A stretch of 64,000 nt of DNA from Patescibacteria group bacterium (GCA_034520665.1 JAXHNJ010000002.1:352660-416659), one strand, 5' to 3'; shown: positions 11,346-59,974, numbered from the stretch's first letter. Numbers and translations are program-made. The notes: generated by a model from the letters alone, not told the origin.

Positions 11346-11935
11346 GTTATTGGGCCAAGCGACGAGTAAGAGCGTGATTTTTTGAGCCTAGAATATAAAC
11401 TAAAACACTGCCCAATGACCATACCAACCGCTCCGCCCGACATCTTTTTAAGGCTAATAGTGCGGCGATTCAAAAACTTTATTCCATTTCGACCCCCTCG
11501 ACTCTCTCACTTTATTCGTTCGCTCGGGGCAGGCTGAGTGGAGAAATCTCACTAAAATATTCATAAGGATCTCTCCTTTGTATAGTGGCGTAAAGAAAAT
11601 AAACCGGACTAAAGTCCGTATGAAAATAATATTTTCTTTTTTCTTAGCCACTTCAGATGTGTACTAATAAAATAGAAAATAAGGTTATGCTGACGCTTTC
11701 CTCCTTTTACCACTTCGTCCGATCATTAAAGAGTAGATGTCAGTCGCGACTGACATCTACGGATAGCAGGCCGCATGGAGAAATCCTGTTAAATTAACCA
11801 TAAGGTTCTCTCCACTGCATCGCGCTCAGCGCGACTGCGGTCGAGATGGTTTGAGTGATTATAATAGCGTAGGCTCGCGTCCCTTGCGCCTTGCAAAACT
11901 AGACAGCCAAGTCTGCCCTTTTCTTTTTAAATACA
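11346..11935. other. ~590-bp GC-richer non-coding block with structured repeats; candidate ncRNA gene(s) or element remnant
   Basis: Lies between the stops of convergent rpsT and holA, so it is neither a promoter nor a 5'UTR. Contains two 37-nt hairpins, GGAGAAATC...CATAAGG(A/T)TCTCTCC, at 11540-11576 and 11777-11813. Contains a perfect 28-nt palindrome at 11733-11760. Has short segments resembling RNase P RNA motifs (GAGTAAGAGCG; CATAAGG), but no complete rnpB or ssrA architecture could be reconstructed by eye. Confidence 0.3.
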
Positions 11936-11953
11936 AGAACAAACCCTATTAAC

Positions 11954-12946
11954 CTAAGAATTACACACCTTAAAAATAAACAAGTCAAAAAGCACTCTCG
12001 GTTCAGCCTGGCTTGTTTTTATTTTCAGGTCAATATCTAGAAGCTGCTGGTAAATATTTTTTAATTCTTTAAATTTAAAATTTCTGGTTTGAACTAAAGA
12101 TTTTTTAGCTACGAAAGGGTGTAAATTTAAACGATTGGCAATGGTATAATAATTGCTTTCTTCTTGGGAAACTTCTTTAACCTGAACTAAAATTCTAAAA
12201 AGACGGCTAAGCATAGCCAGTAGATAAAGCTCATTTTCACCGCTCATAATCTGATCCCTGATTAGTTTTAAAGCTAATTTTTTCTTTTTTTCAGCCAAGG
12301 CATCAGTCAATTTAAAAATATCCGTGTCATACTTAGTTTTTACAAATAAACTAACATCATCTTTATTAATAACTTTTCCTTTTTTATAATTAATTAATTT
12401 TTCAATTTCATTATTCATCTGCCATAAATCCTGGCCAACTAAAGCCAGTAATAAATCCAGAGCTACTGGTTCAATTCGTCCGCCCCTTTTTCTAATTTCT
12501 TTTTCAGTCCAGTTTTTTAGCCTGTACCCTTTGAGTAAACCAAAATCTTCAACTTTAGCTTCTTTAGCCAGATATTTTTGTAGAGGCGAAACTTTCTTAC
12601 GGCCTCTTTTTTTCTTACCGCGGCCCTGATTTTCGATATCACCTTCCCAAAAAATTAAAACTTCATCCTGGCTTAATTTATTTTCTTTTAAATATTTAAC
12701 TACTTCTTTTTGTATTTTCTCTTTTTTATTTTTGCCCATCAAATCTTCTATAACCACTAACTTCTTTTTTGAAAGCAGTCCTTTATTGCCTAATTTATTT
12801 CTTAAATCTTCCAACTTTAATTTTTCACCGGCTAAAACTTCAATATTAAAACCTTGAGGGTCGTATTTTTTCTTAAACCCTTCTCTGTAAAATTTTAGTT
12901 TTTGCCGGGAGCGAAAAGTATCGGCTCCGTAAAGAAAAATTATCAT
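11954..12946 (-). CDS. holA: DNA polymerase III delta subunit
   Basis: N-terminus MIIFLYGADTFRSRQKL... is a typical HolA start. 330 aa. The holA-rpsT neighbourhood is conserved in many bacteria. Confidence 0.7.
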   Translation of the reverse strand: MIIFLYGADTFRSRQKLKFYREGFKKKYDPQGFNIEVLAGEKLKLEDLRNKLGNKGLLSKKKLVVIEDLMGKNKKEKIQKEVVKYLKENKLSQDEVLIFWEGDIENQGRGKKKRGRKKVSPLQKYLAKEAKVEDFGLLKGYRLKNWTEKEIRKRGGRIEPVALDLLLALVGQDLWQMNNEIEKLINYKKGKVINKDDVSLFVKTKYDTDIFKLTDALAEKKKKLALKLIRDQIMSGENELYLLAMLSRLFRILVQVKEVSQEESNYYTIANRLNLHPFVAKKSLVQTRNFKFKELKNIYQQLLDIDLKIKTSQAEPRVLFDLFIFKVCNS

Positions 12947-19404: not shown

Positions 19405-21675
19405 TCAAGAATCTAATTTTCTAGCTTTAAACCATTTAATCAATAAGGTGCCCCCGGTAATAATTACGCCAGCTAAACAAACCCACAAATATTTATAAAT
19501 ATTACTTTTATTATCCTCTCCTTCAATCATAATTTCTTTTTCGCTAGTAGCCCCTAAAACTTCACCTTCTTCATCTTCAGCTGCTTCTGATATTTTTTCT
19601 TCCCCTAGAACCCGGGCTTCATCTAACACTCTTATATCACTGTTTACTCTTGGCAATAATCTAAACCCCAAATCATTATCATAAGAAATTAAAATACCTA
19701 AAACTTCTACTTGGCTGCCTTCTTTATAATCATGGCCATTTATATTAGTGCCTCTTTTATAATAAATTTCAATTTCTTCTGTTTCTTCACTTAAAAGCAT
19801 TTTTGTTTTTGAGTTTTCTAAAACACTGCCATTAACTATAACCAAACTGCCGAAATAAGTTTCATCAATTTCTCCTAAACTTAACCTGATCGCTTCCGGA
19901 AAAATATCTTGATCGCTCAATATCTTAACATCCTCCTCACTGCCAATATTAATTTTCTTTTCCCCGCTACTCTCTGAAATCTTGCCGGTTATTTTTACAT
20001 AATCACCAATTTTCAAGTCCGGAAAATCTTTTTTATATGAATATATTTTAATACCGTTTTGCCCATCAAAAAGATAAAAGTACTGAACCCCAAAAACAGC
20101 CGGTTCCACCGCTACAAAACCTTTGACTATTACTTCCTGGCCTTTTTCTAATTCTTTAGCCCGATTGATTGATACTTCGGATATTTTTGCTGCTTCTGAT
20201 ACTTCTAACTCCTTTACCTCTGCTTCATCCTTTATCCCTAAGACTTTCTCTGAATTTTCCACCTCCTCTAAATCCTCTGTTTCTCTTTTCTTTTTTACAT
20301 CTCCTAAAATCTCATTTTCACTGCCCGGGCTGACCAAAGAAGTCCAAGCCCAACTATTAGTGCCGGCTTTTCTGGCAAAAGAAGAGCCTTTTATTGCTTC
20401 GGGATATTCTACTCCATTAACCACTTTTTGCTTGGGGTCTAAAAGTTGTAAGGTCATACCTGAATTTTTTAGATATATCTTTGTTTGCTGATAACCAAGA
20501 ACTAGAAAGCTTTCTGTTTCTATTAAAGTATCTTTTTCAAAAGTAAAGTATTTTTTACCATTATAAATCTGCCAGCCTCTTAGATTAACCGGTTGATTGT
20601 CTTTATTGATTAATTCAATAAATTCGTTTTCCAGATCACTGCCTTCAGGATTAGGAAAAACTTCATTAATTAAAATTTTATCAGAAAAATCATACTCGAT
20701 ATTTTTGGCTTTATCTTCAGTATTTTCATCTTCTAAATCTAAATTTTCATTTTCTTCCTCCTGATTATCTTCCTCTTCATTTACTTCATCAAAAACAAAC
20801 TCTTCCTCCTCTTCTTCTTTTTCTTTAACTACTACACTTAAGCTGGCAGTGACTTTATTATAACCGTCACTAATGGTTAAAGTAACACCATAATCACCAA
20901 CTGTCTGAAAAACATGATGCGGAGTAATGCCTTCTCCCTGCTGGCCATCTCCAAAATCCCAGGAAAAGCTTAATTCATCCTCTTCCGGGTCAAAAGAGTC
21001 AGAAGCGTCGAAATAAACTTTTTCACCGACTAATACTTCCCTATCTTCTCCGGCCTCAATCACCGGCGGCTGGTTTGAATTTTCCTGACCCGGGGTACCA
21101 AATTCTTGGTCAGTTTTAAAGCCTGTTTTCTGGCTGGCAATATGCCAGGAACTTTCTAAACTTCCCTCTTCAATTTTTGTGTTTCTTTCCATTGACTGCC
21201 AGACCTCACCGGAAGAATATTCGCCTGATAAAGGCTGCCCTGAACCATCATCAGCTGTGTCAATTAAATTTCCCTTATCATCATAAAGTTTTATCTCAAG
21301 CTGGCTGTTGGACAAAGAGACTGACGTATCCACCAAATTGCTTTCTACATTTAGAGCTGACTTTTCTGATTCTGATGAATAATTAGAAATAATATAAAAA
21401 TTATCTAACACTTCACCTTCTGGAATCTCTAGCATTAATTTTTCTTCCCCGGAAGATTTCTTGCTTAAATACCAGTTTGATAAATCAACCCGGGAATCAG
21501 ATAAATTTTTCAGCTCCAACCATTCATCATAAGAAGAAATACTTGACCCCATCCACATCAATTCGTTAATAACTACCATGGGCCTTTCATAAGACTGGAC
21601 TTTTTTAGCTTTAATAAAAAGACCATTACTCACTAATAAAATAATGAGTAAACTAATAATAATTTTTTTAGTCAT
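19405..21675 (-). CDS. Cell-surface protein with LTD - PKD - LTD - OB-fold architecture and C-terminal TM anchor
   Basis: Signal peptide. LTD-like VVINELMWMGSS...DEWLELKN. PKD-like SFSWDFGDGQQG...GDYGVTLTISDG. Second LTD ILINEVFPNPEGSDLENEFIELIN. OB-fold-like KGFVAVEPAVFGVQYFYLFDGQNGIKIY. C-terminal TM plus basic tail. Confidence 0.6.
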   Translation of the reverse strand: MTKKIIISLLIILLVSNGLFIKAKKVQSYERPMVVINELMWMGSSISSYDEWLELKNLSDSRVDLSNWYLSKKSSGEEKLMLEIPEGEVLDNFYIISNYSSESEKSALNVESNLVDTSVSLSNSQLEIKLYDDKGNLIDTADDGSGQPLSGEYSSGEVWQSMERNTKIEEGSLESSWHIASQKTGFKTDQEFGTPGQENSNQPPVIEAGEDREVLVGEKVYFDASDSFDPEEDELSFSWDFGDGQQGEGITPHHVFQTVGDYGVTLTISDGYNKVTASLSVVVKEKEEEEEEFVFDEVNEEEDNQEEENENLDLEDENTEDKAKNIEYDFSDKILINEVFPNPEGSDLENEFIELINKDNQPVNLRGWQIYNGKKYFTFEKDTLIETESFLVLGYQQTKIYLKNSGMTLQLLDPKQKVVNGVEYPEAIKGSSFARKAGTNSWAWTSLVSPGSENEILGDVKKKRETEDLEEVENSEKVLGIKDEAEVKELEVSEAAKISEVSINRAKELEKGQEVIVKGFVAVEPAVFGVQYFYLFDGQNGIKIYSYKKDFPDLKIGDYVKITGKISESSGEKKINIGSEEDVKILSDQDIFPEAIRLSLGEIDETYFGSLVIVNGSVLENSKTKMLLSEETEEIEIYYKRGTNINGHDYKEGSQVEVLGILISYDNDLGFRLLPRVNSDIRVLDEARVLGEEKISEAAEDEEGEVLGATSEKEIMIEGEDNKSNIYKYLWVCLAGVIITGGTLLIKWFKARKLDS

Positions 21676-21740
21676 TAGTTTAATCCTCGTTAAGCCACCG
21701 TATTTATTTTTTAGTTGTGGTTATTGCAGCTAGTAAGGTT

Positions 21741-22148
21741 TTAGGTTTTAGTTTTTGTAATTCTTTTATTATTAAAATTATCCCAAGCCTTGGCCAAGGT
21801 AAATGTTTGCCGAGCAATTTTATCATATTCTTCGATTAAATTATTACATAAATTTTTATCAAAATTATAAAAATCTTTAAGCTGTGATAAGCCAACAATA
21901 GTCTCATTAATTTCAGCTAAGGCATCATCAAGATATTTCTGAAAACCGGCCTTTTGGTGTTTTTTAGCATAACCTTCGGCAATAAGACGTGGTATAGCTT
22001 TACAAGATCTTCTTAACTGAGATGACAAATCATTTCTCTCTATCGAAGGAATTAATGGCAATATTTTATCAAATACAATAACACAAGTTTTATAACTTGA
22101 TCTATAAATTTCTAAATCATTGAAACTTTTTATTTTTCTATAAACCAT
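21741..22148 (-). CDS. Four-helix-bundle protein (23S rRNA intervening-sequence protein family)
   Basis: ...DLEIYRSSYKTCVIVFD...LSSQLRRSCKAIPRLIAEGYAKKHQKAGFQKYLDDALAEINET matches the family pattern. The ORF-track start at 22190 is probably an N-terminal extension; the internal ATG is at 22148. Confidence 0.65.
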   Translation of the reverse strand: MVYRKIKSFNDLEIYRSSYKTCVIVFDKILPLIPSIERNDLSSQLRRSCKAIPRLIAEGYAKKHQKAGFQKYLDDALAEINETIVGLSQLKDFYNFDKNLCNNLIEEYDKIARQTFTLAKAWDNFNNKRITKTKT

Positions 22149-22348
22149 AACTACAACCTTACTAGCCGCCATAACTAAAACTAAATTCAATAAAAAAATT
22201 TGGTGACTCCTTTAGCGGAGCCACCAAAATCTGTCTACAAGTATAGAATATATTTTTCGGCTAAATATGTCAAGTTGTAAATCCACAAATTATCAACTTC
22301 TATTATAGTATGACCTTAAGCTCCGTCAAAGGACACAAGTTTTGCCCT

Positions 22349-25161: not shown

Positions 25162-25332
25162 TAAAAAATTTGTGGTTTATTTAATACACTTTCAGTATAA
25201 CATTTATAATTACTTAAACAATTTGATTATTTATAATTTATTTTATTCCCCTTATTATCCCAGCTGTTTTTAACCACCTTTCCGCCGTCTTAACTTTCTG
25301 CTAAAATAAATGAGTAAACTATTATCAATTAG

Positions 25333-26067
25333 ATGATTATTTTATATAGTATTCTTTGTTTTTTAGCTATAACTATTTTTCTTTTAGTTATTCTTTTATT
25401 TAAGCCGAGGAAAAATAAATTTATTTATGAAAAACAAATAGATAAAATACTTCTTAATAATAGCTTTAGTTCATTTAAGCCCGATGAAATGCATCTTCTT
25501 GAAAAAATAGAAAATAACACCGCTTTTTTCCGAATAACTAAACCGGGGCTCTATTCGGCTTATGAAAATAATGTCTACTCTCAATATTATATAGTTCCAA
25601 AATTATATAAAAACAATAAAAAAAATATTGGAATTAATGCTTTTTTTATCCGGAAAAAACCAAAAACCTGGTTCGAACAAAGATTCCCCCAAAGATCAAC
25701 CTTATTCTTTGAATTTTTATTAAATATTCAAATAAATGAAGAAATTATTATATTTAGAGAGTCTTTTAATACTAAGCTCATGAGAAAATTTTTTCCTGAT
25801 AGCCTTTTAGTTGAGGATGTAGACATTGAAAGTATGCTTTTTAACCATAAATATCAGGTATTCACCAATAATAAAAAAATTGCTTTTAAACTGCTTGATC
25901 CTCTAATTGTTGATTTTCTTAATAAAGAAAAATATGTTTCTTTAATTATAAAAGAGAATTCAATAATTTTTAAAATTTGGCCAAAAATTTCTGAAAAAAA
26001 ATTAAAGCAGTACTTGAATATTGGCGTAAAATTTGTTAAACATATAAAGAGTATCTATAAAAAATAA
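25333..26067 (+). CDS. Membrane-anchored hypothetical protein (244 aa)
   Basis: N-terminal TM. No recognised motif. Its last ~30 codons lie inside direct-repeat copy A. Confidence 0.45.
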   Translation: MIILYSILCFLAITIFLLVILLFKPRKNKFIYEKQIDKILLNNSFSSFKPDEMHLLEKIENNTAFFRITKPGLYSAYENNVYSQYYIVPKLYKNNKKNIGINAFFIRKKPKTWFEQRFPQRSTLFFEFLLNIQINEEIIIFRESFNTKLMRKFFPDSLLVEDVDIESMLFNHKYQVFTNNKKIAFKLLDPLIVDFLNKEKYVSLIIKENSIIFKIWPKISEKKLKQYLNIGVKFVKHIKSIYKK

Positions 26068-26093
26068 TAAATTTAGCCCAGGTGGCGGAACTG
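25965..26093. repeat. Direct repeat copy A (~129 bp): 3' end of ORF 25333..26067 plus the first 18 nt of tRNA-Leu
   Basis: About 95% identical to 28009..28137. Confidence 0.85.
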
Positions 26094-26162
26094 GTAGACG
26101 CGCTAGGTTTAGGACCTAGTGGGAGTAATCCCGTGGAGGTTCAAGTCCTCTCCTGGGCACCA
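26076..26162 (+). tRNA. tRNA-Leu (anticodon TAG), class II with long variable arm, CCA encoded
   Basis: Cloverleaf: acceptor GCCCAGG/CCTGGGC; anticodon stem CTAGG/CCTAG with loop TTTAGGA; T-arm GGTTCAAGTCC; 3' ACCA. Confidence 0.9.
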
Positions 26163-26186
26163 GTGCTAACATTTTTATCAAACTAT

Positions 26187-27512
26187 ATGACTAATATGAA
26201 ATATTTATTTACAAGTACTATTATTTGCCTTTTTTTATTAATCCCTTTGGCAGCTCATAGCACTGACGATTGTGAAAACGGTTATGAATATCAGCGTATG
26301 AGTGGAGTTGGTTGTGTTCAAATAAATTGTAACGACATCCCTAATGCTCATTATAGTTACACAAAAGATTGTATTTGTGGTTCCTCTGGCAGTATCCATG
26401 AAGACCCTTCCGACCCAAATACTGAGTGTTATAGAAAGCCCACTTATAAAGCTTGTCCAAGTTGCTTATACGCCTGTGTTCATGCTGGTGAAGAGTGCCC
26501 CGGAGAAGAAAGAGATAATTATGTTGAAGATAGTCAAACAAATACAAACACTAACATAAACAGCAACACTAGTAATCAAAATTCTAACACCAATCAAAGC
26601 GTAAATAATAATACTAATTCCAGCAATACAAATATTTCTGTCGCCGGCACTAATATATCTCTTTCCACTTCAGGAAATATTGATTACAACAGTTGTGAAT
26701 ATATCTGCAGTAAATTTACTCGAGGAAATAAATACGCTGTCGTAAATTTAGCTGAAGGAACTCCTCCAAACTGTAAATGTCAGATAGATATAAACGACAA
26801 ATTAAATCGTCTTAACCAAACCATAAGTGTCAACGGGGACAATGAGACCACATTAACATTTGACCCTAACACTGGTCGGTTAATTAAAAAAACAAAAATC
26901 AATAGAAAAGATGAAGTGGAAAAAATTAGAAAAAGATTAGGCTATAAGTACACGCAAGAACAAATAGATAAATTACTAGCCTCTAATAAAATTGATGAAT
27001 GGTTTAATCAACAGATAAAAAATATTAAAACTTCTACCAGCTTAAAAGATCCGCAGTTTTGGTGGCAACATATGGTCGCCATTTGGGATCATGGATTTGG
27101 TGGTAACAGCGCTGACTTTGTTGACACCTATGAATTCGGGCGTTGTGGTGATTCAATGCTTTGGTTGAACCGTAATCTTACTGCTCATTTGGATATAAAT
27201 GACAACAAAAATACTGCTGGACAAAAACACGAAGCCATCCTTTCAATTACTGGAGAAAAATACGGCAACCTATTAAATCATACCTCCACTCTTATTCGCC
27301 CACAGGGTATATCAAACGTCGCTTGGGAGGATTTAGTAAAAACCCTCCAAGATAAATCAGGAGGTGGAGACAAAAATCCCGGTATTAAAAGAAATGATCT
27401 AAAAAATATCGCCCCAGAAATAATGGATGCAAAAGTATTAGATCCATACAAAAAAGAAATAACCACCGTTAGAGAATTTATTAAGGGATGGTCTTATATA
27501 AGAATTGGTTAA
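26187..27512 (+). CDS. Secreted Cys-rich protein with Asn/Thr-rich low-complexity linker (441 aa)
   Basis: The ORF-track start at 26082 overlaps the tRNA. The internal ATG at 26187 precedes a signal peptide (MTNMKYLFTSTIICLFLLIPLAAHS). Eleven or more Cys in the first 120 mature residues, then NTNTNINSNTSNQNSNTNQ... low complexity, then a C-terminal domain of unknown function containing HGFGG...GRCGDS. Confidence 0.55.
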   Translation: MTNMKYLFTSTIICLFLLIPLAAHSTDDCENGYEYQRMSGVGCVQINCNDIPNAHYSYTKDCICGSSGSIHEDPSDPNTECYRKPTYKACPSCLYACVHAGEECPGEERDNYVEDSQTNTNTNINSNTSNQNSNTNQSVNNNTNSSNTNISVAGTNISLSTSGNIDYNSCEYICSKFTRGNKYAVVNLAEGTPPNCKCQIDINDKLNRLNQTISVNGDNETTLTFDPNTGRLIKKTKINRKDEVEKIRKRLGYKYTQEQIDKLLASNKIDEWFNQQIKNIKTSTSLKDPQFWWQHMVAIWDHGFGGNSADFVDTYEFGRCGDSMLWLNRNLTAHLDINDNKNTAGQKHEAILSITGEKYGNLLNHTSTLIRPQGISNVAWEDLVKTLQDKSGGGDKNPGIKRNDLKNIAPEIMDAKVLDPYKKEITTVREFIKGWSYIRIG

Positions 27513-28017
27513 TTATAAATATATGAAAAAAAGAAAAATAATTTTTTTGTCTATAATAGCAATAATTTTTTTGATCTTACTTTTTGGTTATTTTATTTTG
27601 CGTTGGATACCAAAAGATATTACAGAAGTAACCGAGATAAATTCCGAAGAACATTGGGGAACAATTACCGGCTCGCTGGGTTATCCAAGCGATATTATTC
27701 CTGACATGGGAGTTTGTGCCGAAAGCACTGACCAGAATGACTTATTTTGCACCTATGAAATAATTGAGAATGAAGATTTCACTTATGGATTAGGCTATGA
27801 AATAAAAGTGCCACCAGATTCATATTACGTTTTTGCTCATCTTATTGATGAAACTAACAAAAATATTGGGTATACAGATGAAGATAAAGCCTACTATTCA
27901 AAATTTGTAACCTGTGGCATGGGCCTAGAGTGTACTTCGCACAAACCAATTAAAGTAACTGTGGAAAGATATGAAACCGTTACCAGAATTGATCCAATAG
28001 ATTGGTATAATTTTTAA
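27505..28017 (+). CDS. Membrane-anchored hypothetical protein (170 aa)
   Basis: N-terminal TM. Overlaps the upstream stop by 8 nt, which suggests coupling. Confidence 0.45.
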   Translation: MVNYKYMKKRKIIFLSIIAIIFLILLFGYFILRWIPKDITEVTEINSEEHWGTITGSLGYPSDIIPDMGVCAESTDQNDLFCTYEIIENEDFTYGLGYEIKVPPDSYYVFAHLIDETNKNIGYTDEDKAYYSKFVTCGMGLECTSHKPIKVTVERYETVTRIDPIDWYNF

Positions 28018-28137
28018 AATTTGGCCAAAAATTTCTGAAAAATAATTAAAACAGTACTTGAATATTGGCGTAAAATTTGTTAAACATATACAGAGTATCT
28101 ATAAAAAATAATAAATTTAGCCCAGGTAGTGGAACTG
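28009..28137. repeat. Direct repeat copy B (~129 bp)
   Basis: Matches 25965..26093 with about 6 mismatches, including a frame-disrupting change in the copied ORF tail. Confidence 0.85.
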
Positions 28138-28430
28138 TCCCGAAGTTGTCAAAATCTTTAATTTTGTGACAACTTCGAGGATCCTCGTTCTCCTTTTGCC
28201 AGACGAAAAATTTACTTGCCCGCCTATGCCTGCGCCAGGGTGGTGAAACTGGTAGACACGCAAGGTTTAGAACCTAGTGAGCGCAAGCTCGTGAGAGTTC
28301 AAATCTCTCCTCCGGCATAGGCATTGGCGGGCGGGCCTGCCAGGGCTTGGGAGTTCAATTCTCTCTCTCCTAGCACTAACATCGACCTGTGCCAGACGTA
28401 GCCTTTGGCGAAGTCATCTCCTGGGCCCCA
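28120..28430 (+). pseudogene. Array of tRNA-Leu-derived fragments: split tRNA-Leu-like 5' (28120-28137) and 3' (28409-28430) pieces flanking a 14-bp hairpin, a pseudo-tRNA-Leu(TAG)-like body (28222-28322) and a further T-arm/3'-trailer fragment
   Basis: The 5' piece GCCCAGGTAGTGGAACTG breaks in the D-loop. The 3' piece AAGTCATCTCCTGGGCCCCA resembles the 3' end of the intact tRNA-Leu. The internal body (GGTGGTGAAACTGGTAGACACGCAAGGTTTAGAACCTAGTGAGCGCAAGCTCGTGAGAGTTCAAATCTCTCC) has D, anticodon (TAG), variable and T arms, but its acceptor strands do not pair (TGCGCCA vs CTCCGGC) and it is enclosed by a 9-bp stem GCCTATGCC/GGCATAGGC. A third fragment repeats the T-arm plus the CACTAACAT trailer. 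Confidence 0.45.
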
Positions 28431-28528
28431 TAAATCAAGCTTTTAGTCTATTTTTCTGGAATTAAAAATATATTTATTAAATTATAAATTTTTGCTAATA
28501 TGAAAGCATAAAATAACTATAAAAAATC

Positions 28529-29527
28529 ATGCTTTTATTTTGGATTTTAGTCTTTATTGTTTCCTTAGCAGTATTAGTAAAATGCGCTGACTGGTTTTTA
28601 ATCAGTGCGGAAAAAATAGGCCTATCCCTGGGCTTATCCCCTTTTATTGTCGGCGTGACTATTGTTGCTTTAGGTACTTCTTTTCCTGAACTTATTACTG
28701 CTTTAACCGCCTCGTTCAAAGGAGTAACTGAAATTGTGCCAGCTAATGCTATTGGCTCCAACATCGCCAATATACTTTTAGTGGTTGGTTTTGCCGCCAT
28801 TTTCGCTAAAAAATTAACTGTTACCAAAAGCTTAATTAATCTTGACCTGCCTCTTTTAGCTATTGGCACCGTCCTTCTTTTGGGTATTCTTTGGGATGGG
28901 GAAGTTAATATATTGGAAGCAGTACTTTTGCTTTTAACTTATACCACCTATATTTTTTATACTCTAAAACATGAGGAAGAACCTAACTCTTCTGAAGAAA
29001 GAGAAATTCTGCCATCGCGCCCCAGCCGCCGTCACCACATTACCCACAAAAAAAAGAAAGGGGGAATTAAACAACAAAAATTAATAAAAAAGGATTTTGT
29101 TTTATTAGTTATCGGAGTTTTAGGCTTAATTTTTGGTTCTCGTTATTTAATAAATTCGGTTACTGAGATTTCCGCTATATTAGAAATTGGCGCCGGAGTT
29201 ATTGCTATCTCGGCCGTGGCTATTGGTACCTCTTTGCCCGAATTAATGGTTACTATTAAGGCCGCTCTAGCTCATAAATCAGAAGTGGCCTTAGGTAATA
29301 TATTCGGCTCCAATATCTTTAACATGCTAGTGGTAGTTGGTTTACCCGGTATTTTTTCCAACTTAAAAGCTGATGAAAAAACCATTACCCTTGGTCTGCC
29401 CGCTTTGGCTCTAACTACTTTAATATTTGTTATCTCCGGTATCTCCAGAAAGATTCATATCTGGGAAGGTTTTTTCTATCTTTCTTTGTATGTTTTATTT
29501 ATTGGTAAGTTATTTGATTTGTTTTAA
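28529..29527 (+). CDS. CaCA-family Na+/Ca2+ (cation/Ca2+) exchanger, YrbG-like
   Basis: Two alpha-repeats GTSFPEL and GTSLPEL. About 10 TM segments. Central hydrophilic loop. Confidence 0.85.
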   Translation: MLLFWILVFIVSLAVLVKCADWFLISAEKIGLSLGLSPFIVGVTIVALGTSFPELITALTASFKGVTEIVPANAIGSNIANILLVVGFAAIFAKKLTVTKSLINLDLPLLAIGTVLLLGILWDGEVNILEAVLLLLTYTTYIFYTLKHEEEPNSSEEREILPSRPSRRHHITHKKKKGGIKQQKLIKKDFVLLVIGVLGLIFGSRYLINSVTEISAILEIGAGVIAISAVAIGTSLPELMVTIKAALAHKSEVALGNIFGSNIFNMLVVVGLPGIFSNLKADEKTITLGLPALALTTLIFVISGISRKIHIWEGFFYLSLYVLFIGKLFDLF

Positions 29528-32329: not shown

Positions 32330-33310
32330 TTATGATTGATCTTTCTTTACTGTATTATTTCTTTGATAATGTTTTATTTTTTCAAAATATATTATTTTTT
32401 CTTGAGTTCTTCTTACCTTATTAATCATATCAGCTACTAAACCAACAATAATTAGTAATAAACCGAAAATATTTAAGGCTAAGCCCATAAAGCCTAAAGT
32501 TTTATAGGGAAAAACTGCTCCTAAAATTAGTAATCTTATAAATATAAAAATATCAAAAATAAGACCAAGAATAAAAAAAATAATTCCGGTCCAGCCAAAA
32601 TATCTTAAAGGCTTATAATCAATAAGAGTTCTAAAAAAAGTATTTAATATTTGATAGCCATAACGCCAAAGATTATGGGCAATTTTTGATTGACCAAAAT
32701 CTCTTTCGCCCTTTACTTTAATAGGAACTTCTTTAATTAATAAATTTTTAAAAGCTAAATTAAGAATCGTTTCATGGGTGTAAGTATAACGCCCAAAAAG
32801 ATTAAGGTTCAGTAAGGCCTCTCTAGAATAAGCCCGAAAACCGCAGGAAACATCATAGAATTTTTTCTTTGTTGATAAACTGATTAATCGGCTAATTATA
32901 AAATTACCCCCTTTTTTTAGCCGCGGCATTCTAGGAATAATTTTTTTATTTATAAATCTTGAAGCAGTGACTAAAGCCTTTTTTTCCTCTATTATTGGTT
33001 TCACTAAATAAGGAATATCTCCGGCATTAAACTGACCATCAGCGTCAATATTAACCATTATATCTGCTTTTCTTTTTAAAGCTTCCTCTACTCCTCTTTG
33101 AAAAACTAAACTTAAGCCCTGATTTTCTAAAAAAGAAATAACTTCGGCTCCGGCTCTTAAAGCTTCCCTTTTTGTGGCGTCATCAGAGCCATCATCAATA
33201 ACTAAAACTTCTATATTATCAATTCCTTTAATTTCTTGGGGGATATCTTTTATAACCGACTTTATTGTCTTTTCTTCGTTATAGGCCGGCAGTAAAACTA
33301 ATAACTTCAT
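32330..33310 (-). CDS. Glycosyltransferase family 2, polyprenyl-phosphate sugar transferase-like (DPM1/ArnC/GtrB-like) with C-terminal TM helices
   Basis: LLPAYNEEKTI...VIDDGSDDAT...DADGQ (DXD region). Two C-terminal TM segments. Confidence 0.8.
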   Translation of the reverse strand: MKLLVLLPAYNEEKTIKSVIKDIPQEIKGIDNIEVLVIDDGSDDATKREALRAGAEVISFLENQGLSLVFQRGVEEALKRKADIMVNIDADGQFNAGDIPYLVKPIIEEKKALVTASRFINKKIIPRMPRLKKGGNFIISRLISLSTKKKFYDVSCGFRAYSREALLNLNLFGRYTYTHETILNLAFKNLLIKEVPIKVKGERDFGQSKIAHNLWRYGYQILNTFFRTLIDYKPLRYFGWTGIIFFILGLIFDIFIFIRLLILGAVFPYKTLGFMGLALNIFGLLLIIVGLVADMINKVRRTQEKIIYFEKIKHYQRNNTVKKDQS

Positions 33311-33350
33311 ATCTTTTATTTAATCATATAATTAATAATTATTAAAGAAA

Positions 33351-34892
33351 TTAATTTATTTTTATTTTATAAAAATAAAATCCATTTTTTTCAAATAGTA
33401 ATTTTAAATCTTTATTTTCTTTTATTTTATATAGATTTTTCAAATTTGGTCTAAGATATGGTATTTTTTCATTGTTAAAAATAAGATATTTTATTTCTCT
33501 GTTTCTAGCAAATTCAATTATATCTTCATACTCATTGCTTGGCAAAATATAATTTATTCCTTGAGCCCAATAAGCTATTATTCTTGCATTCGTTAATATT
33601 TTATGGCCAGAGCCATACTTTTCCTTAAAAAATTGACTCATTTCTTTTATTTCTGTATCTCTGAACAAGGAAAAAAATCTGAATTGATAACCATCTTCTA
33701 TAGCAATAACAAACTGAAAAGACAAAAAAACTAATAAAATACTCAATATAACTATCCTCTTCTTTTTAAAGGATAAACTTTGATATAATCTCACTATACC
33801 TACGGCCACAATCATTAATATAATTGGAGTTAGCGGAAAGTAATAGCGGTAATAGACTTTTCCTGAATAATATATAAAAAGGAAAAAGGGTATCCAGCTA
33901 CCTAAAAAATAAAGTTTGTGCAAAATATATTTTTTCTTTTTTGAAAAATAAAAAGCAAAAACTATAAAAATTATCTGAAAAATAAAGTAACAGATAACAT
34001 AGGCTATATTATGAGGTAAATTTCTGAAAAAATTATTAATATAAATAATTATATACGATTTTTTTGGTTTTTCCATTTCTAGCTGGTTACTATTATAATC
34101 TGTATTTTCTTCATTCAACCCAAAGAAAATGATATTTTTTTCAAAATAAGAACTTTTGCTAGAAGAAACCGCGTAATCCTGCTGACCGGTAATTACAAAC
34201 TGGCCTTTTTCTTTATATAAATAAATCAAATAAGGAGAAACAACCATAACCACACCAATTATTAATAAGGTTAAACTAATAAATAATTTCTTTAATCTAA
34301 TTCTTTTATAATAAATATAATTAATAAAAAGCCATAAGATTATAACCGGCAAAAAACTTAAACCAACAATTCTTACATAATAAGAAAAACCAATTAAAAT
34401 ACCTAAGATCAGATACCAAAAAGTATTTTTCTCTTTATTTAAAAGAAGCCAACTTAAAAGAACAATACTAATAAAGAGAAAAGTAAATAAAGCTTCGGTC
34501 CAGGCCGCACCAGAATACCAAATAACATAAGGGTTTAAAATAAATAAAATAATAGATAGAATAGCTATTTTAAAATTAAAAAGTTTTTTAGCCAGAAAAT
34601 AAATAATAATAATTGATAAAAAAGTACTAATTAAGGAAACAATCTGGCTGGCCAGTTCAATATTATTTAAATAAAAATTATAAACATAAATCATAAAAGG
34701 AAAACCAGGCTGTATCAAACTATTTAACCGGGTAGTAGTATTAATCTTTAAACTTTTATCTAGGTTTTCTGCTAATTTGAAATATAAGGCTGAGTCACTA
34801 CTAGAAACCACTGAAGAAGAAAAAGTAAAAAATAAAACAAGAGCTAATAACAATATACCTCCCACAAAATATATTTCTTTTTTTCTAGACAT
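33351..34892 (-). CDS. GT-C-fold membrane glycosyltransferase (ArnT/PMT-like; GT39/GT83-like), tandem paralog 1
   Basis: 513 aa with 11 or more TMs. N-terminal ...SDSALYFKLAENL... periplasmic-loop motif typical of polyprenyl-P-sugar-dependent GT-C enzymes. Confidence 0.55.
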   Translation of the reverse strand: MSRKKEIYFVGGILLLALVLFFTFSSSVVSSSDSALYFKLAENLDKSLKINTTTRLNSLIQPGFPFMIYVYNFYLNNIELASQIVSLISTFLSIIIIYFLAKKLFNFKIAILSIILFILNPYVIWYSGAAWTEALFTFLFISIVLLSWLLLNKEKNTFWYLILGILIGFSYYVRIVGLSFLPVIILWLFINYIYYKRIRLKKLFISLTLLIIGVVMVVSPYLIYLYKEKGQFVITGQQDYAVSSSKSSYFEKNIIFFGLNEENTDYNSNQLEMEKPKKSYIIIYINNFFRNLPHNIAYVICYFIFQIIFIVFAFYFSKKKKYILHKLYFLGSWIPFFLFIYYSGKVYYRYYFPLTPIILMIVAVGIVRLYQSLSFKKKRIVILSILLVFLSFQFVIAIEDGYQFRFFSLFRDTEIKEMSQFFKEKYGSGHKILTNARIIAYWAQGINYILPSNEYEDIIEFARNREIKYLIFNNEKIPYLRPNLKNLYKIKENKDLKLLFEKNGFYFYKIKIN

Positions 34893-35020
34893 TATTAAAG
34901 CTTTTTTAATTATTTTAAAATTTACCCCGCCCCATTGTTTTTTCTTCGTTATAGGCCGGCAGTAAAACTAATAACTTCATATCTTTTATTTAATCATATA
35001 ATTAATAATTATTAAAGAAA

Positions 35021-36565
35021 TTAATTTATTTTTATTTTATAAAAATAAAATCCATTTTTTTCAAATAGTAATTTTAAATCTTTATTTTCTTTTATTTTAT
35101 ATAGATTTTCTAATCTAGGCCTTATCCAAGAAATACGATTTTTATCAAAAATAAGATATTTTATTTCTCTGTTTCTAGCAAATTCAATTATATCTTCATA
35201 CTCATTGCTTGGCAAAATATAATTTATTCCTTGAGCCCAATAAGCTATTATTCTTGCATTCGTTAATATTTTATGGCCAGAGCCATACTTTTCCTTAAAA
35301 AATTGACTCATTTCTTTTATTTCTGTATCTCTGAACAAGGAAAAAAATCTGAATTGATAACCATCTTCTATAGCAATAACAAACTGAAAAGACAAAAAAA
35401 CTAATAAAATACTCAATATAACTATCCTCTTCTTTTTAAAGGATAAACTTTGATATAATCTCACTATACCTACGGCCACAATCATTAATATAATTGGAGT
35501 TAGCGGAAAGTAATAGCGGTAATAGACTTTTCCTGAATAATATATAAAAAGGAAAAAGGGTATCCAGCTACCTAAAAAATAAAGTTTGTGCAAAATATAT
35601 TTTTTCTTTTTTGAAAAATAAAAAGCAAAAACTATAAAAATTATCTGAAAAATAAAGTAACAGATAACATAGGCTATATTATGAGGTAAATTTCTGAAAA
35701 AATTATTAATATAAATAATTATATACGATTTTTTTGGTTTTTCCATTTCTAGCTGGTTACTATTATAATCTGTATTTTCTTCATTCAACCCAAAGAAAAT
35801 GATATTTTTTTCAAAATAAGAACTTTTGCTAGAAGAAACCGCGTAATCCTGCTGACCGGTAATTACAAACTGGCCTTTTTCTTTATATAAATAAATCAAA
35901 TAAGGAGAAACAACCATAACCACACCAATTATTAATAAGGTTAAACTAATAAATAATTTCTTTAATCTAATTCTTTTATAATAAATATAATTAATAAAAA
36001 GCCATAAGATTATAACCGGCAAAAAACTTAAACCAACAATTCTTACATAATAAGAAAAACCAATTAAAATACCTAAAATTAGATACCAAAAAGTATTTTT
36101 TTCTTTATTTAAAAGAAGCCAACTTAAAAAAACAATACTAATAAAGAGAAAAGTAAATAAAGCTTCGGTCCAGGCGGCACCAGAACACCAAATAACATAA
36201 GGGTTTAAAATAAATAAAATAATAGATAGAATAGCTATTTTAAAATTAAAAAGTTTTTTAGCCAGAAAATAAATAATTATTATTGATAAAAAAGTGCTAA
36301 TCAAGGAAACAAGCTGGCTGGCCAGTTCAATATTATTTAAATAAAAATTATAAACATAAATCATAAAGGAATAACCAGGTTGTACCAGGCTATGCAAACT
36401 AGTAGTAGTATTAATCTTTAAACTTTTATCTAGGTTTTCTGCTAATTTGAAATATAAGGCTGAGTCACTGGTAGAAACTACTGAGGAAGAAAAAGTAAAA
36501 AATAAAACAAGAGCTAATAACAATATACCTCCAAGAAAATATATTTCCTTTTTCTTTCCCATCAT
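35021..36565 (-). CDS. GT-C-fold membrane glycosyltransferase (ArnT/PMT-like), tandem paralog 2
   Basis: 514 aa. More than 95% identical to paralog 1, except for the N-terminal residues and a ~15-aa C-terminal patch (DKNRISWIRPRLENL vs NNEKIPYLRPNLKNL). Confidence 0.55.
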   Translation of the reverse strand: MMGKKKEIYFLGGILLLALVLFFTFSSSVVSTSDSALYFKLAENLDKSLKINTTTSLHSLVQPGYSFMIYVYNFYLNNIELASQLVSLISTFLSIIIIYFLAKKLFNFKIAILSIILFILNPYVIWCSGAAWTEALFTFLFISIVFLSWLLLNKEKNTFWYLILGILIGFSYYVRIVGLSFLPVIILWLFINYIYYKRIRLKKLFISLTLLIIGVVMVVSPYLIYLYKEKGQFVITGQQDYAVSSSKSSYFEKNIIFFGLNEENTDYNSNQLEMEKPKKSYIIIYINNFFRNLPHNIAYVICYFIFQIIFIVFAFYFSKKKKYILHKLYFLGSWIPFFLFIYYSGKVYYRYYFPLTPIILMIVAVGIVRLYQSLSFKKKRIVILSILLVFLSFQFVIAIEDGYQFRFFSLFRDTEIKEMSQFFKEKYGSGHKILTNARIIAYWAQGINYILPSNEYEDIIEFARNREIKYLIFDKNRISWIRPRLENLYKIKENKDLKLLFEKNGFYFYKIKIN

Positions 36566-36684
36566 TAAAACTTTTTTAATTATTTTTAAAATCTGTTCCT
36601 CTCTTTATAATAAATAATAATTGAAAAAAAGCAGTTAAGCAAGCCGTTTATCTCTTAAAATAAAAGATGATGGCTCTTTAAATT

Positions 36685-47360: not shown

Positions 47361-47376
47361 AGTTGTAAATTTAATC

Positions 47377-47408
47377 GCCGCACAAATCTTTCTGTGCGGC
47401 TTTTTTTA
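47377..47408 (+). terminator. Rho-independent terminator GCCGCACAAAUCUUUCUGUGCGGC + U8 (copy 1 of a repeated terminator element)
   Basis: 8-bp GC stem plus TTTTTTTT directly after the PfkB stop. Near-identical copy at 49103-49133. Confidence 0.6.
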
Positions 47409-47471
47409 TTAATTGACAAAAAAACAAATTTAACCTATATTACCATAAATGAATTTAAATATTTTTTTATA

Positions 47472-48257: not shown

Positions 48258-49094
48258 ATGATGTTTTCAAAAACAGCAGTAATGTTTACGGCCTTTAACG
48301 ATGGCGAAACTATTGGTGATTTGATTAAAAAAGTGATAGAAATTACCAAAGAGAAATCTGACATTTGGGTGATTAATGACGGGTCGAAAGATAACACTTC
48401 AAAAATAGCTAAAAAACTAGACTGCTGTTTAGTGGATCTTCCTGAAAATCAGGGAGTCGGGTCAGCTTATAAGGCTGGTTTTTCTGAAATTATTAAGAAA
48501 GGAGAAAAGTATAAATACGTTATTAAAATTGATGCTGATGGTCAGCATCAACCGAAATTTATACCAAAAATCATTAGAAATCTAGAAAATGGATTTCAGC
48601 TGGTGGTTTGCTCCCGCTTTCATGAGCGTTCCTGCCAAAACAGCACTCCTAAAGACAGAAGTTTTTTAAACTGGCTTTACGCCCGTGAATTAAGCCAGAT
48701 AATAGGAAGCCGTGTAACAGACGCCCGTTCCGGATTTTTCGGTATTACTCTACCGGTTCTTAAAAAAATTACTCCTAAACTGATCACACCCGGATACGGT
48801 ATTCCTATGGAAGTTTTACTTCGCACCTGGCAGTTTATAAAGGAGGTAAAAAAGTGGCCAAATTCTTGGCGAGAAGAGATAATTCACCCGGCTATCTATG
48901 ATTATGCTATTCATAAGAATACCCGTCGCCATAAGATGTACCAAAGCGAAGAATGGCATCATAAAATTGAAAGATTTTTAACCGCTTATACCGCCCTGGT
49001 AACAGTACTTTATGATATGGGTTTTAACACCCATGAAATTACCCAAAGGATCTCAAAACAACTGGCTGAACACACCGAATACCTTATTGGGTAA
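48258..49094 (+). CDS. Glycosyltransferase family 2 (DPM1-like, soluble)
   Basis: VMFTAFNDGETIGDLI...VINDGSKDNT...IDADGQH. Confidence 0.75.
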   Translation: MMFSKTAVMFTAFNDGETIGDLIKKVIEITKEKSDIWVINDGSKDNTSKIAKKLDCCLVDLPENQGVGSAYKAGFSEIIKKGEKYKYVIKIDADGQHQPKFIPKIIRNLENGFQLVVCSRFHERSCQNSTPKDRSFLNWLYARELSQIIGSRVTDARSGFFGITLPVLKKITPKLITPGYGIPMEVLLRTWQFIKEVKKWPNSWREEIIHPAIYDYAIHKNTRRHKMYQSEEWHHKIERFLTAYTALVTVLYDMGFNTHEITQRISKQLAEHTEYLIG

Positions 49095-49102
49095 ATTTAA
49101 TC

Positions 49103-49133
49103 GCCGCACAAATCTCTCTGTGCGGCTTTTTTT
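49103..49133 (+). terminator. Rho-independent terminator, copy 2 (GCCGCACAAAUCUCUCUGUGCGGC + U run)
   Basis: Same ~45-nt element as at 47366-47408, including the upstream AATTTAATC, with one substitution in the loop. Confidence 0.6.
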
Positions 49134-49162
49134 ATAATTTATAAAATGATAAAATATAGAAT

Positions 49163-59134: not shown

Positions 59135-59210
59135 AATAAAATTTGACAAAAATCTTATTTTAGGATATAATAGAACAAACATAAAAATTATTATTATTAA
59201 AATTAAGAAA

Positions 59211-59570
59211 ATGAAAAAAATATCTCTAATCTTAGCTCTATTTCTACTAATTTTGCCAACGACTGCTTCAGCTGTTGTGACCAGTTATAGTATTGAAGAC
59301 TTTGGTAGTTCTGTTGGATTAGGCACAGCTGATCTTGTAGACACCGCCATTAACGTTATCCAATGGGTCCTTGGTATTTTAGCTTTAGTAGCTGTAGTTA
59401 TGATTATTTATGGTGGCATTCTTTGGATGACGGCTGCTGGTAATGAAGAAAAGATTGGAAAAGCCAAGAAAGTTATTTCGGCCGCTGTTATTGGTTTAAT
59501 TATTGTCTTGATGGCTTGGGCTATTGTCATCTTTGTGGCCGGTACTACTGCTAATGTAGTTTCTGAATAA
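59211..59570 (+). CDS. VirB2/TrbC-like T4SS pilin-like protein (119 aa)
   Basis: Signal peptide (cleavage ~ASA). IQWVLGILALVAVVMIIYGGILWMTAAGNEEKIGKAKKVISAAVIGLIIVLMAWAIVIFVAG resembles the VirB2 loop ...ISWMFG.... Confidence 0.6.
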   Translation: MKKISLILALFLLILPTTASAVVTSYSIEDFGSSVGLGTADLVDTAINVIQWVLGILALVAVVMIIYGGILWMTAAGNEEKIGKAKKVISAAVIGLIIVLMAWAIVIFVAGTTANVVSE

Positions 59571-59617
59571 TATCTGTATAATAATTATTAAAATATTTTT
59601 AGAAAGGAGGTGAAATA

Positions 59618-59974
59618 ATGAAAAAATTAGCTCTAATTACTTCTTCTGTTTTGTTACTAGCTCTTCCAGTTACTGCTTTAGCTCAAACCTCATACTCCAT
59701 TGGAGATATTGGTGGTGAAGTCGGTTTAGGCACAGCTGATCTTAGAGATACAGTAGTTAATATTATTCAATGGGTGCTTGGTATTTTAGCTTTAGTAGCT
59801 GTAGTTATGATTATTATCGGTGGCTTTCAATGGATGACCGCTGCTGGTAATGAAGAAAGGATTGAAAAAGCTAAGAAAGTTATCTCAGCCGCTGTTATTG
59901 GTTTAATTATTGTCTTGCTGGCCTGGGCTATCGTTATCTTTGTGGCTGGTACTACTTCTAACGTTACTCAATAA
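59618..59974 (+). CDS. VirB2/TrbC-like T4SS pilin-like protein (118 aa), close paralog of 59211..59570
   Basis: Same architecture. Mature region is >75% identical to the preceding gene. Strong SD (AGGAGG). Confidence 0.6.
   Translation: MKKLALITSSVLLLALPVTALAQTSYSIGDIGGEVGLGTADLRDTVVNIIQWVLGILALVAVVMIIIGGFQWMTAAGNEERIEKAKKVISAAVIGLIIVLLAWAIVIFVAGTTSNVTQ

Follow-up and report, generated by a model that had tools for sequence, protein, structure and literature searches.

How did a two-gene operon come to be enclosed by direct repeats at a tRNA-Leu(UAG) gene, with no integrase in its vicinity? The locus in question lies in a 64,000-nucleotide (nt) stretch from a Patescibacteria group bacterium (GCA_034520665.1, JAXHNJ010000002.1:352660-416659), which is here called the window and from whose first letter all positions are counted. 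The operon comprises F0, a gene for a secreted cysteine-rich protein, and F1, a gene for a small membrane protein. It is preceded by open reading frame (ORF) 25333 and an intact tRNA-Leu(UAG) gene (tRNA#1) and is followed by a repeat of the preceding sequence, a GC-rich filler (Y) containing a second, degenerate tRNA-Leu(UAG) gene (tRNA#2), and a CaCA antiporter gene. Comparison with the corresponding empty site on a metagenomic contig, L083, shows that the locus holds the same 200-bp target (ORF tail, spacer and tRNA) twice, as overlapping images on either side of the 1.84-kb operon, the second tRNA image having been gutted by Y. Two such images flanking an operon are the signature of a target duplication. 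The explanation that we put first, at about even confidence, is therefore a lineage-specific duplication of the 200-bp target at tRNA-Leu(UAG), with capture of the operon at the junction; the recombination would not have been site-specific, and the tRNA copy that had become redundant would have decayed afterwards.

The repeat pair

In a blastn self-comparison the two repeat copies (Table 1) agree at 126 of 131 nt (96.2%, E ~1e-55), close to the approximately 129 bp at approximately 95% identity that had been given in an earlier annotation, the sequence-only reading; a repeat search extends the same repeat to 142 nt at 93%. The five mismatches are at 25999/28043, 26007/28051, 26047/28091, 26084/28128, and 26086/28130. 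Each copy contains the final 105 nt of ORF25333, an 8-nt spacer and nt 1–18 of tRNA-Leu(UAG), and between the copies lie, as had correctly been seen before, the intact tRNA-Leu gene and the genes for the cysteine-rich secreted protein and the small membrane protein. The sequence-only reading had also recognized that copy 1 holds the genuine 3′ end of ORF25333. Its assertion that the tail in copy 2 carries a frame-breaking variant was mistaken: there is neither an indel nor a frameshift, and an A-to-T change at 28043 generates a premature TAA stop codon (28043–28045). The first 11 nt of copy 2 (ATAATTTTTAA) are at the same time the final codons and the stop codon of F1 and mark the junction.

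The further claim that the repeat covers the 5′ half of the tRNA rather than the 3′ half held in part: the 5′ 18 nt are indeed within the repeat, but a displaced 3′ fragment is present as well, at 28411–28430. This 3′ stump, the identity of the 18 nt in copy 2 as the 5′ stump of a second tRNA-Leu and the tRNA-Leu(TAG) call at 28234–28317 had all been overlooked.

The empty site in a relative

A single homolog of ORF25333 was found in 5.8e9 proteins (P0002, 79% identity), and it is encoded on L083 (JGI 3300022700, Ga0248669_103233). Upstream of it the contig is syntenic with the window, with genes for an LTD/PKD protein, a bAvd-like ORF, phosphoribosyl pyrophosphate (PRPP) synthetase, an HAD protein and a DUF72 protein at 69–86% amino acid (aa) identity. 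The site itself consists in L083 of the ORF25333 homolog, a tRNA-Leu(UAG) gene differing from tRNA#1 in 1 nt, 96 nt of spacer and the CaCA gene (98% aa identity across the 115 residues present); F0-F1 and Y are missing. It had been proposed to search for precisely such an empty site in relatives, and its existence bears out the view that an insertion or segmental duplication is centred on tRNA-Leu.

In a three-way alignment, the colinearity of copy 1 with L083 ends at the CCA of the tRNA, beyond which copy 1 diverges into the F0 upstream region. When Y is removed, the L083 site aligns colinearly over its full length with copy 2 plus the 3′ stump, the sole gap being 49 nt (tRNA nt 19–67), and the 3′ stump adjoins the CaCA upstream region exactly as at the empty site. 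Copy 2 plus the 3′ stump thus forms a second, gutted copy of the tRNA-Leu gene.

Between the ORF stop codon and the tRNA, 8 nt (TAAATTTA) are inserted in both window copies but not in L083, and the copies are 96% alike, each being only 85–89% identical to L083. It follows that the duplication took place in the window lineage after its split from L083; the alternative would be prolonged gene conversion between the copies. When polarised on L083, the derived changes are balanced (two in copy 1, three in copy 2). As a relative age, the divergence of about 4% between the copies compares with about 15% to L083. Since L083 has the empty site, the window lineage has gained about 2.3 kb.

Closer relatives were sought with a CaCA-based genome scan, which yielded matches of at most 60% identity and no synteny; the CaCA homologs P0119 (75%) and P0120 (66%) have different upstream contexts. 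A reciprocal empty site was not found for contig L084, which carries the closest F0: its flanking genes have no homologs in the window. Exact look-ups for ORF25333, F0, P0001, and P0003 returned no record.

Table 1. Features of the tRNA-Leu(UAG) locus and their positions in the window
Feature	Position	Strand	Description	Accession, locus tag or source
ORF25333	25333..26067	+	Intact upstream neighbour, 244 aa	MDZ7798789.1, U5L76_04205
Repeat copy 1	25963..26093	+	ORF25333 tail, 8-nt spacer, tRNA-Leu nt 1–18	
tRNA-Leu(UAG) #1	26076..26162	+	Intact, CCA encoded, 56.7 bits	
Inserted segment	26163..28006	+	1.84 kb with two-gene operon, missing at the L083 site	
F0	26187–27512	+	441 aa, secreted, Cys-rich	MDZ7798790.1, U5L76_04215
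F1	27523–28017	+	164 aa, N-terminal membrane helix and Cys-containing domain	
Repeat copy 2	28007..28137	+	ORF25333 pseudo-tail, spacer, 18-nt 5′ stump of second tRNA-Leu	
Filler Y	28138..28410	+	273 nt, GC-rich, in place of tRNA nt 19–67	
tRNA-Leu(UAG) #2	28234..28317	+	Heterologous, degenerate, 43.4 bits, CCA not encoded	ARAGORN, Rfam
3′ stump of disrupted resident tRNA-Leu	28411..28430	+	T-loop to CCA, 18/20 identical to 26143–26162	
Native spacer and CaCA antiporter gene	28431..29527	+	Spacer 98 nt (15% GC), gene 28529–29527	

The disrupted tRNA copy and its filler

Downstream of F1 the order is copy 2 with its 18-nt 5′ stump, the 273-nt Y, the 20-nt 3′ stump and the CaCA upstream region. 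The 5′ stump (28120–28137) is identical to tRNA#1 at 16 of 18 positions, and for the 3′ stump zero matches of such quality to the end of tRNA#1 are expected by chance. Taken together, the two stumps carry 4 substitutions in 38 nt versus 1 in the 113 nt of AT-rich pseudo-tail and spacer (Fisher p = 0.014), and three of the four are GC to AT changes, which fits neutral decay of a GC-rich tRNA sequence under AT-biased mutation.

Y has a GC content of 52%, compared with a window mean of 33% and with 15% in the adjoining native spacer. The part preceding tRNA#2 (Y1, 28138–28233) has 44% GC and contains a hairpin of about 14 bp (28141–28177). The part following it (Y3, 28318–28410) has 59% GC; in it, at about 28331–28374, lies a third tRNA-Leu-like piece that has suffered an internal deletion and that keeps 6 nt of the upstream flank of tRNA#2 (GCCTGC-CAGGGCTTGG, then GAGTTCAATTCTCTC). 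The motif TGCCAGACG is present twice in Y.

Relative to tRNA#1 and to the L083 tRNA, tRNA#2 shows seven fully compensatory pair changes over four helices, and two of its pairs are broken (4:69 and 28:42). From these compensatory changes, the broken pairs and the absence of CCA it follows that tRNA#2 was once a working tRNA-Leu(UAG) from a lineage far more distant than L083 and that it is now degenerating; Y as a whole is judged to be foreign or ectopic DNA. A leader/trailer duplex of about 15 bp (28212–28341; GCCCGCC-TATGCCT/AGGCAT-T-GGCGGGC) stacks on the acceptor stem of tRNA#2, which is unusual for a bacterial tRNA gene. It was this complement around tRNA#2 that was considered with regard to terminal inverted repeats of Y.

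Y and its surroundings were searched in several ways. Rfam at E<=10 found two tRNAs only in 25800–28700 and in 28100–28450; neither tmRNA nor an intron of group I or group II nor any other family was matched. Among the 114 loci that were fetched there is no homolog of those parts of Y that lie outside tRNA#2; a comparison of Y with INPHARED phages revealed only generic tRNA-Leu similarity; and the exact tRNA#2 pattern was without a match in the viral contigs of IMG/VR. All small ORFs within Y are shorter than 50 aa and unremarkable, and in 25800–28700 no sigma-70-like promoters or intrinsic terminators scored above shuffled sequences. An insertion sequence or a miniature inverted-repeat transposable element was considered and rejected, since Y is not flanked by a duplication and neither the window nor the 114 loci hold another copy of it. 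In Rfam, the 114 loci and the phage and viral databases there is thus nothing to support Y as an intron, as part of a split tRNA or as a member of a mobile-element family.

The F0-F1 operon

F0 has a signal peptide and a 10-Cys module, followed by a low-complexity N/T/P linker, a 4-Cys module and a strongly conserved C-terminal domain with the motifs FWWQH, DHG, GRCGDSM, SITGE..NHT, and DAKVLDPY (alignment A4). Its 116 homologs are from metagenome-assembled genomes of Patescibacteria (labelled Kerfeld-, Uhr-, or Parcubacteria), and nearly all are full-length, with 42–77% identity. F1 directly follows F0 in every locus examined (L084–L088 and 23 metagenome loci); the genes flanking the pair differ between lineages, and a tRNA gene is adjacent in few of them only. 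The GC contents of F0 (35%) and F1 (33%) are those of the window (33%), and the closest F0 (77%) and the closest F1 (82%) are as divergent as ordinary orthologs shared by the window and L083. Because of this ortholog-like divergence and host-equal GC content the pair looks like a lineage-typical operon that was relocated, and not like classic island cargo. F0 with its membrane partner may be considered a putative movable unit restricted to Patescibacteria.

As to function, F0 has no match in Pfam, in NCBIfam or in a PDB profile search, and F1 has none in Pfam or NCBIfam. The C-terminal domain of F0 is an orphan, for which 1.84e9 proteins yielded 18 cluster representatives; Cys316, His361, and Asp415 (numbering of the 437-aa reference sequence in alignment A4) are invariant in it. 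The AlphaFold model of F0 has a mean predicted local distance difference test (pLDDT) score of 67, with the C-terminal domain above 80, and Foldseek searches with it against PDB and BFVD gave nothing at E<=0.001. It is a reasonable guess that F0 is a putative secreted cysteine hydrolase, perhaps of papain- or transglutaminase-like type, and F1 a putative membrane-bound partner, inhibitor or immunity protein. The description of the cargo as effector-like in the sequence-only reading is likewise a guess. The N-terminal 100 aa of F0 (26187–26500, signal peptide plus 10-Cys module) are common to about 30 Patescibacteria proteins with 39–68% identity and differing C-termini, which suggests that this module defines a modular family of secreted proteins. 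Among the proteins with an F0-like N-terminus there is one precomputed hit to a PAAR motif and one to a MopE-type protein.

The idea that F0-F1 is a tRNA-targeting element also elsewhere was rejected: tRNA-Gly(CCC) lies upstream in L099, L101, and L102, and tRNA-Asn downstream in L106, without flanking tRNA-fragment repeats. In L084 (9652–9900 versus 11752–11960), and also in L085–L089, a 75-nt remnant of the F1 tail plus terminator is found upstream of the operon. In the L084 lineage, the palindrome GTCATTTCGAGCGA...GGTCGAAGTGAC follows both this upstream remnant and the complete downstream F1 gene. Through the remnant and the palindrome copies the operon has direct repeats on both sides in that lineage as well, and from the remnant it would follow that duplication and then partial deletion also occurred around the operon elsewhere. 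The palindrome, which flanks the operon in L084–L089 and vaguely resembles the Y1 hairpin, was dismissed as a common denominator, being absent from the window.

Proposed course of events

The starting state would have been ORF25333, tRNA-Leu, 96 nt and CaCA, as in L083. In a first event, 200 bp (105 nt from the end of ORF25333, the spacer and the complete tRNA) would have been doubled in direct orientation with the operon captured between the copies, i.e., a small tandem duplication with the operon as junction "filler"; the upstream copy would have retained an intact ORF25333 and tRNA. The likely route would be illegitimate or microhomology-mediated joining, or replication template switching. 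In the case of a template switch, the nascent strand would exit after the tRNA CCA, copy the operon and resume at ATAA(TTTTTAA), 200 nt upstream. It is plausible that forks stall at tRNA genes. In a second event, if the order is correct, the redundant downstream tRNA would have exchanged nt 19–67 for the 273-bp GC-rich foreign segment, which would have brought with it the heterologous tRNA-Leu(UAG) and its partial duplicate, both of them then decaying under AT-biased mutation.

At the junction between F1 and the ORF tail, ATAA is shared. The shared sequence would be longer, up to ATAATTTTTAA (4–11 nt), if the native F1 ended in WYNF-stop as in L096, and since some F1 orthologs do end in this way, a microhomology of up to this length is possible. 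A second duplication is found 5 kb downstream: two tandem units of 1.66 kb (33264–34920 and 34934–36590) are 96.3% identical, which is the same divergence as that of the 131-nt repeat. Each unit contains a 47-nt 5′ stump of a GT2 gene (32330..33310, minus strand) and a gene for a membrane protein of 513/514 aa, and their junction carries a 13-nt GC-rich filler (TTTACCCCGCCCC). Within about 8 kb of the site there is no integrase, transposase or phage gene, in agreement with the sequence-only reading in so far as it had noted the absence of an integrase. The possible junction microhomology, the 1.66-kb tandem duplication, the remnant in L084 and the lack of these mobility genes are the reasons why a duplication-type, non-site-specific event is favoured.

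It should be noted, however, that several points weigh against this course of events. Neither for the operon nor for Y was a source copy identified in the 64 kb covered of the 698-kb contig, and one F0 protein is listed for the metagenome-assembled genome. The left junction coincides exactly with the end of the tRNA at CCA, and it is in the T-loop that the 3′ stump starts; this is the pattern of integrase-type islands. The order of events is deduced from one close relative only, L083. The microhomology is ambiguous at 4–11 nt, depending on the native end of F1. A templated junction insertion of 1.8 kb is, to our knowledge, unusual in bacteria.

Whatever the enzymology, the locus is a tRNA-proximal insertion or segmental duplication with pseudo-tRNA debris. 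This is a known kind of event that has left an ordinary rearrangement scar and will not surprise a specialist. Its value is that of a well-resolved case of gene-order change in small, integrase-poor Patescibacteria genomes, with the empty site, both junctions and the decaying redundant tRNA in hand.

Alternative explanations

The sequence-only reading had offered a decayed island or a non-canonical recombination event, which was the right range of explanations. A decayed integrase-type island is the main rival, although we regard it as unlikely. An element carrying F0-F1 and Y would have integrated at the T-loop of tRNA-Leu, with attL (26143–26162) regenerating the tRNA and attR (28411–28430) being the displaced 3′ end; the integrase and most of the element would then have been lost, and the ORF tail and the 5′ stump would have come to lie inside through a further duplication of 131 nt or through a tandem duplication with subsequent deletion. 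Such integration explains the regenerated intact tRNA together with a displaced 20-nt T-loop-to-CCA fragment that matches at 18 of 20 positions, where none is expected by chance. It also explains why the insertion starts exactly after CCA, why the stump begins in the T-loop and why L083 has an empty site, and an element could, by imprecise excision, have picked up from a former host such a heterologous tRNA-Leu as is carried by the compositionally foreign Y. However, not only is the integrase missing within about 8 kb, but the 5′ stump, Y and the 3′ stump are ordered and oriented as one gutted tRNA copy, which an integrase model has to treat as coincidence. Moreover, the cargo is a conserved chromosomal operon of host GC content that elsewhere is not flanked by tRNA fragments, even where tRNA-Gly lies upstream, and at least three events are needed, more than for target duplication with junction capture.

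Somewhat more doubtful still is the import of a ready-made segment of ORF tail, tRNA and F0-F1 from a sibling strain, either by a Campbell-type single crossover of a 2,044-bp circle or by homology-facilitated illegitimate recombination, with ORF25333 and the tRNA as anchor and the other end at the ATAA microhomology. The structure does equal that of a single crossover between such a circle and the resident site, there is possible microhomology at one junction, and the 4% difference between the copies could reflect strain divergence instead of age. Yet import merely shifts the origin of the arrangement to another strain, neither a donor arrangement nor a circle was seen, and the lineage-specific 8-nt insertion in both copies requires that the donor was nearly the same organism.

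We consider it improbable, but of interest, that Y is an enzyme-less "tRNA-replacement" module, in which a heterologous tRNA-Leu(UAG) within a long leader/trailer hairpin inserts by recombination within the body of the resident tRNA-Leu and makes good its loss, and which together with F0-F1 would constitute an integrase-independent, tRNA-anchored movement of operons. If true, this would reveal integrase-independent, tRNA-anchored operon transfer among Patescibacteria genomes.

Slightly less probable again is that the arrangement is ancestral and that the "empty site" in L083 is the product of a secondary homologous deletion between the repeats. Recombination between the tRNA copies or the 20-nt repeats would presumably restore a clean ORF-tRNA-CaCA order, but the shared 8-nt insertion and the 96% versus 85–89% identities would then call for sustained gene conversion.

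That two strains or molecules were wrongly joined through the 131-nt repeat (e.g., a chromosome with ORF, stump, Y, stump and CaCA, and a separate 2-kb unit) is barely credible. The Logan contigs L001 and L002 (SRR26473340, an independent assembly) are identical to the window. L002 extends from inside tRNA#1 through F0 and F1 to 30 nt of copy 2, and L001 from 22 nt before the 5′ stump through the stump and Y to CaCA and beyond, so that both copy-2 junctions (F1/repeat and repeat/stump plus Y) are confirmed. Both contigs terminate within the repeat because they are k=31 unitigs, and they do not phase the repeat themselves. But from the repeat edge a difference between the copies is reached after only 36 nt, and identical stretches are at most 39 nt long, and therefore ordinary reads do phase it; moreover, on the alternative path no intact tRNA-Leu(UAG) gene would be left in the chromosome.

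Just as hard to credit is that 28120–28430 (311 nt) is a functional RNA, either a tRNA-Leu that is split or contains an intron, or a structured RNA with its ends serving as acceptor stem. The ends can indeed pair perfectly over the 7 bp of an acceptor stem, the stability of the fold exceeds that of shuffled sequences (z = −4.0) and the filler has 52% GC within a 33% GC genome. But the "exons" amount to only 18 + 20 = 38 of 87 nt, and missing from them are the anticodon and variable arms as well as one strand each of the D-stem (3′) and the T-stem (5′), the break spans D-loop to T-loop, the Rfam (E<=10), 114-locus, phage and viral searches returned neither an intron or other family nor a homolog, the four mostly GC to AT stump substitutions in 38 nt are consistent with neutral decay, and the relative L083 has a plain tRNA.

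Neighbouring genes and repeats

ORF25333 gives a weak match to DUF3137, under the curated cut-off. Genes within about 8 kb of the site encode DUF72, HAD, PRPP synthetase, bAvd-like, CaCA, LPG_synthase_TM, methyltransferase, and glycosyltransferase proteins. Just upstream there is a second indel, where 171 nt in the window (25162–25332) stand against 7056–10000 in L083. There, six extra genes lie between DUF72 and the ORF25333 homolog, namely those for ChaB, glutaredoxin, DJ-1/PfpI, DUF378, BON, and a PhdYeFM antitoxin. Further upstream, on the minus strand (19405–22190), the gene for a four-helix protein similar to bAvd and the 23S-rRNA-IVP (21741..22190) is located beside that for a 756-aa LTD+PKD surface protein (19405..21675), the Pfam labels of both being taken from the L083 orthologs.

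Two other repeats are found in the window. A direct repeat of about 350 nt (59210–59557 and 59617–59964; 80% identity, 407-nt period) is either an older tandem duplication or an intragenic repeat, and a 57-nt element occurs at 47365–47421 and 49091–49146 (93% identical) and is a terminator-like hairpin (AATCGCCGCACAAATCT.TCTGTGCGGCTTTTTTT).

Comparison with known systems

Two defining features of tRNA islands of the tyrosine-integrase type, in that part of the Islander description (PMC4383910) which is used here as definition, are matched by the locus. As in such islands, the inserted DNA directly adjoins a tRNA gene at its 3′ end, with the intact tRNA at one end, a displaced 20-nt fragment as direct repeat at the other and an empty site in a relative. 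It differs from islands as defined there in having no integrase, F0 and F1 being the only ORFs between the ends, an insert of only 2.3 kb and a conserved operon of host GC content as cargo. Foreign composition is limited to the 273-nt Y. Furthermore, an integrase crossover does not duplicate the 5′ 18 nt of the tRNA and the 113 nt upstream of it (ORF tail and spacer), and both are duplicated here. A tRNA-adjacent insertion with a displaced tRNA fragment need therefore not be an integrase island, and island finders relying on tRNA-fragment repeats would miscall this locus.

Polymorphic-toxin/immunity pairs are resembled in that F0 is secreted, that its N-terminal module is found on about 30 proteins with different C-termini and that a small membrane-anchored partner is always co-inherited. 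They differ from F0-F1 in that Pfam, NCBIfam, PDB sequence and fold searches detected no toxin or immunity domain in this cargo.

Homology-facilitated illegitimate recombination, which was reportedly described for natural transformation by de Vries and Wackernagel in 2002, likewise adds DNA beside an anchor, one side being joined via homology (here ORF25333 plus tRNA) and the other via microhomology. The difference is that there is no known donor here and that the shared lineage markers make the "foreign" DNA nearly self.

Segmental duplications with a junction insert are the remaining comparison. The candidate mechanism class is illegitimate or microhomology-mediated recombination, or replication template switching of the fork stalling and template switching (FoSTeS) or microhomology-mediated break-induced replication (MMBIR) type, of which we know of no demonstration in Patescibacteria. 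The present insert is unlike those of this class in its size of 1.84 kb, in being a complete operon and in having no identified source copy. What the locus has in common with this class is a contiguous 200-bp target present as two direct copies around non-local DNA, with colinearity between the outer side of either copy and the ancestral site, a possible microhomology of 4–11 nt at one junction, and a second tandem duplication of the same age, also with filler, in the same 10 kb.

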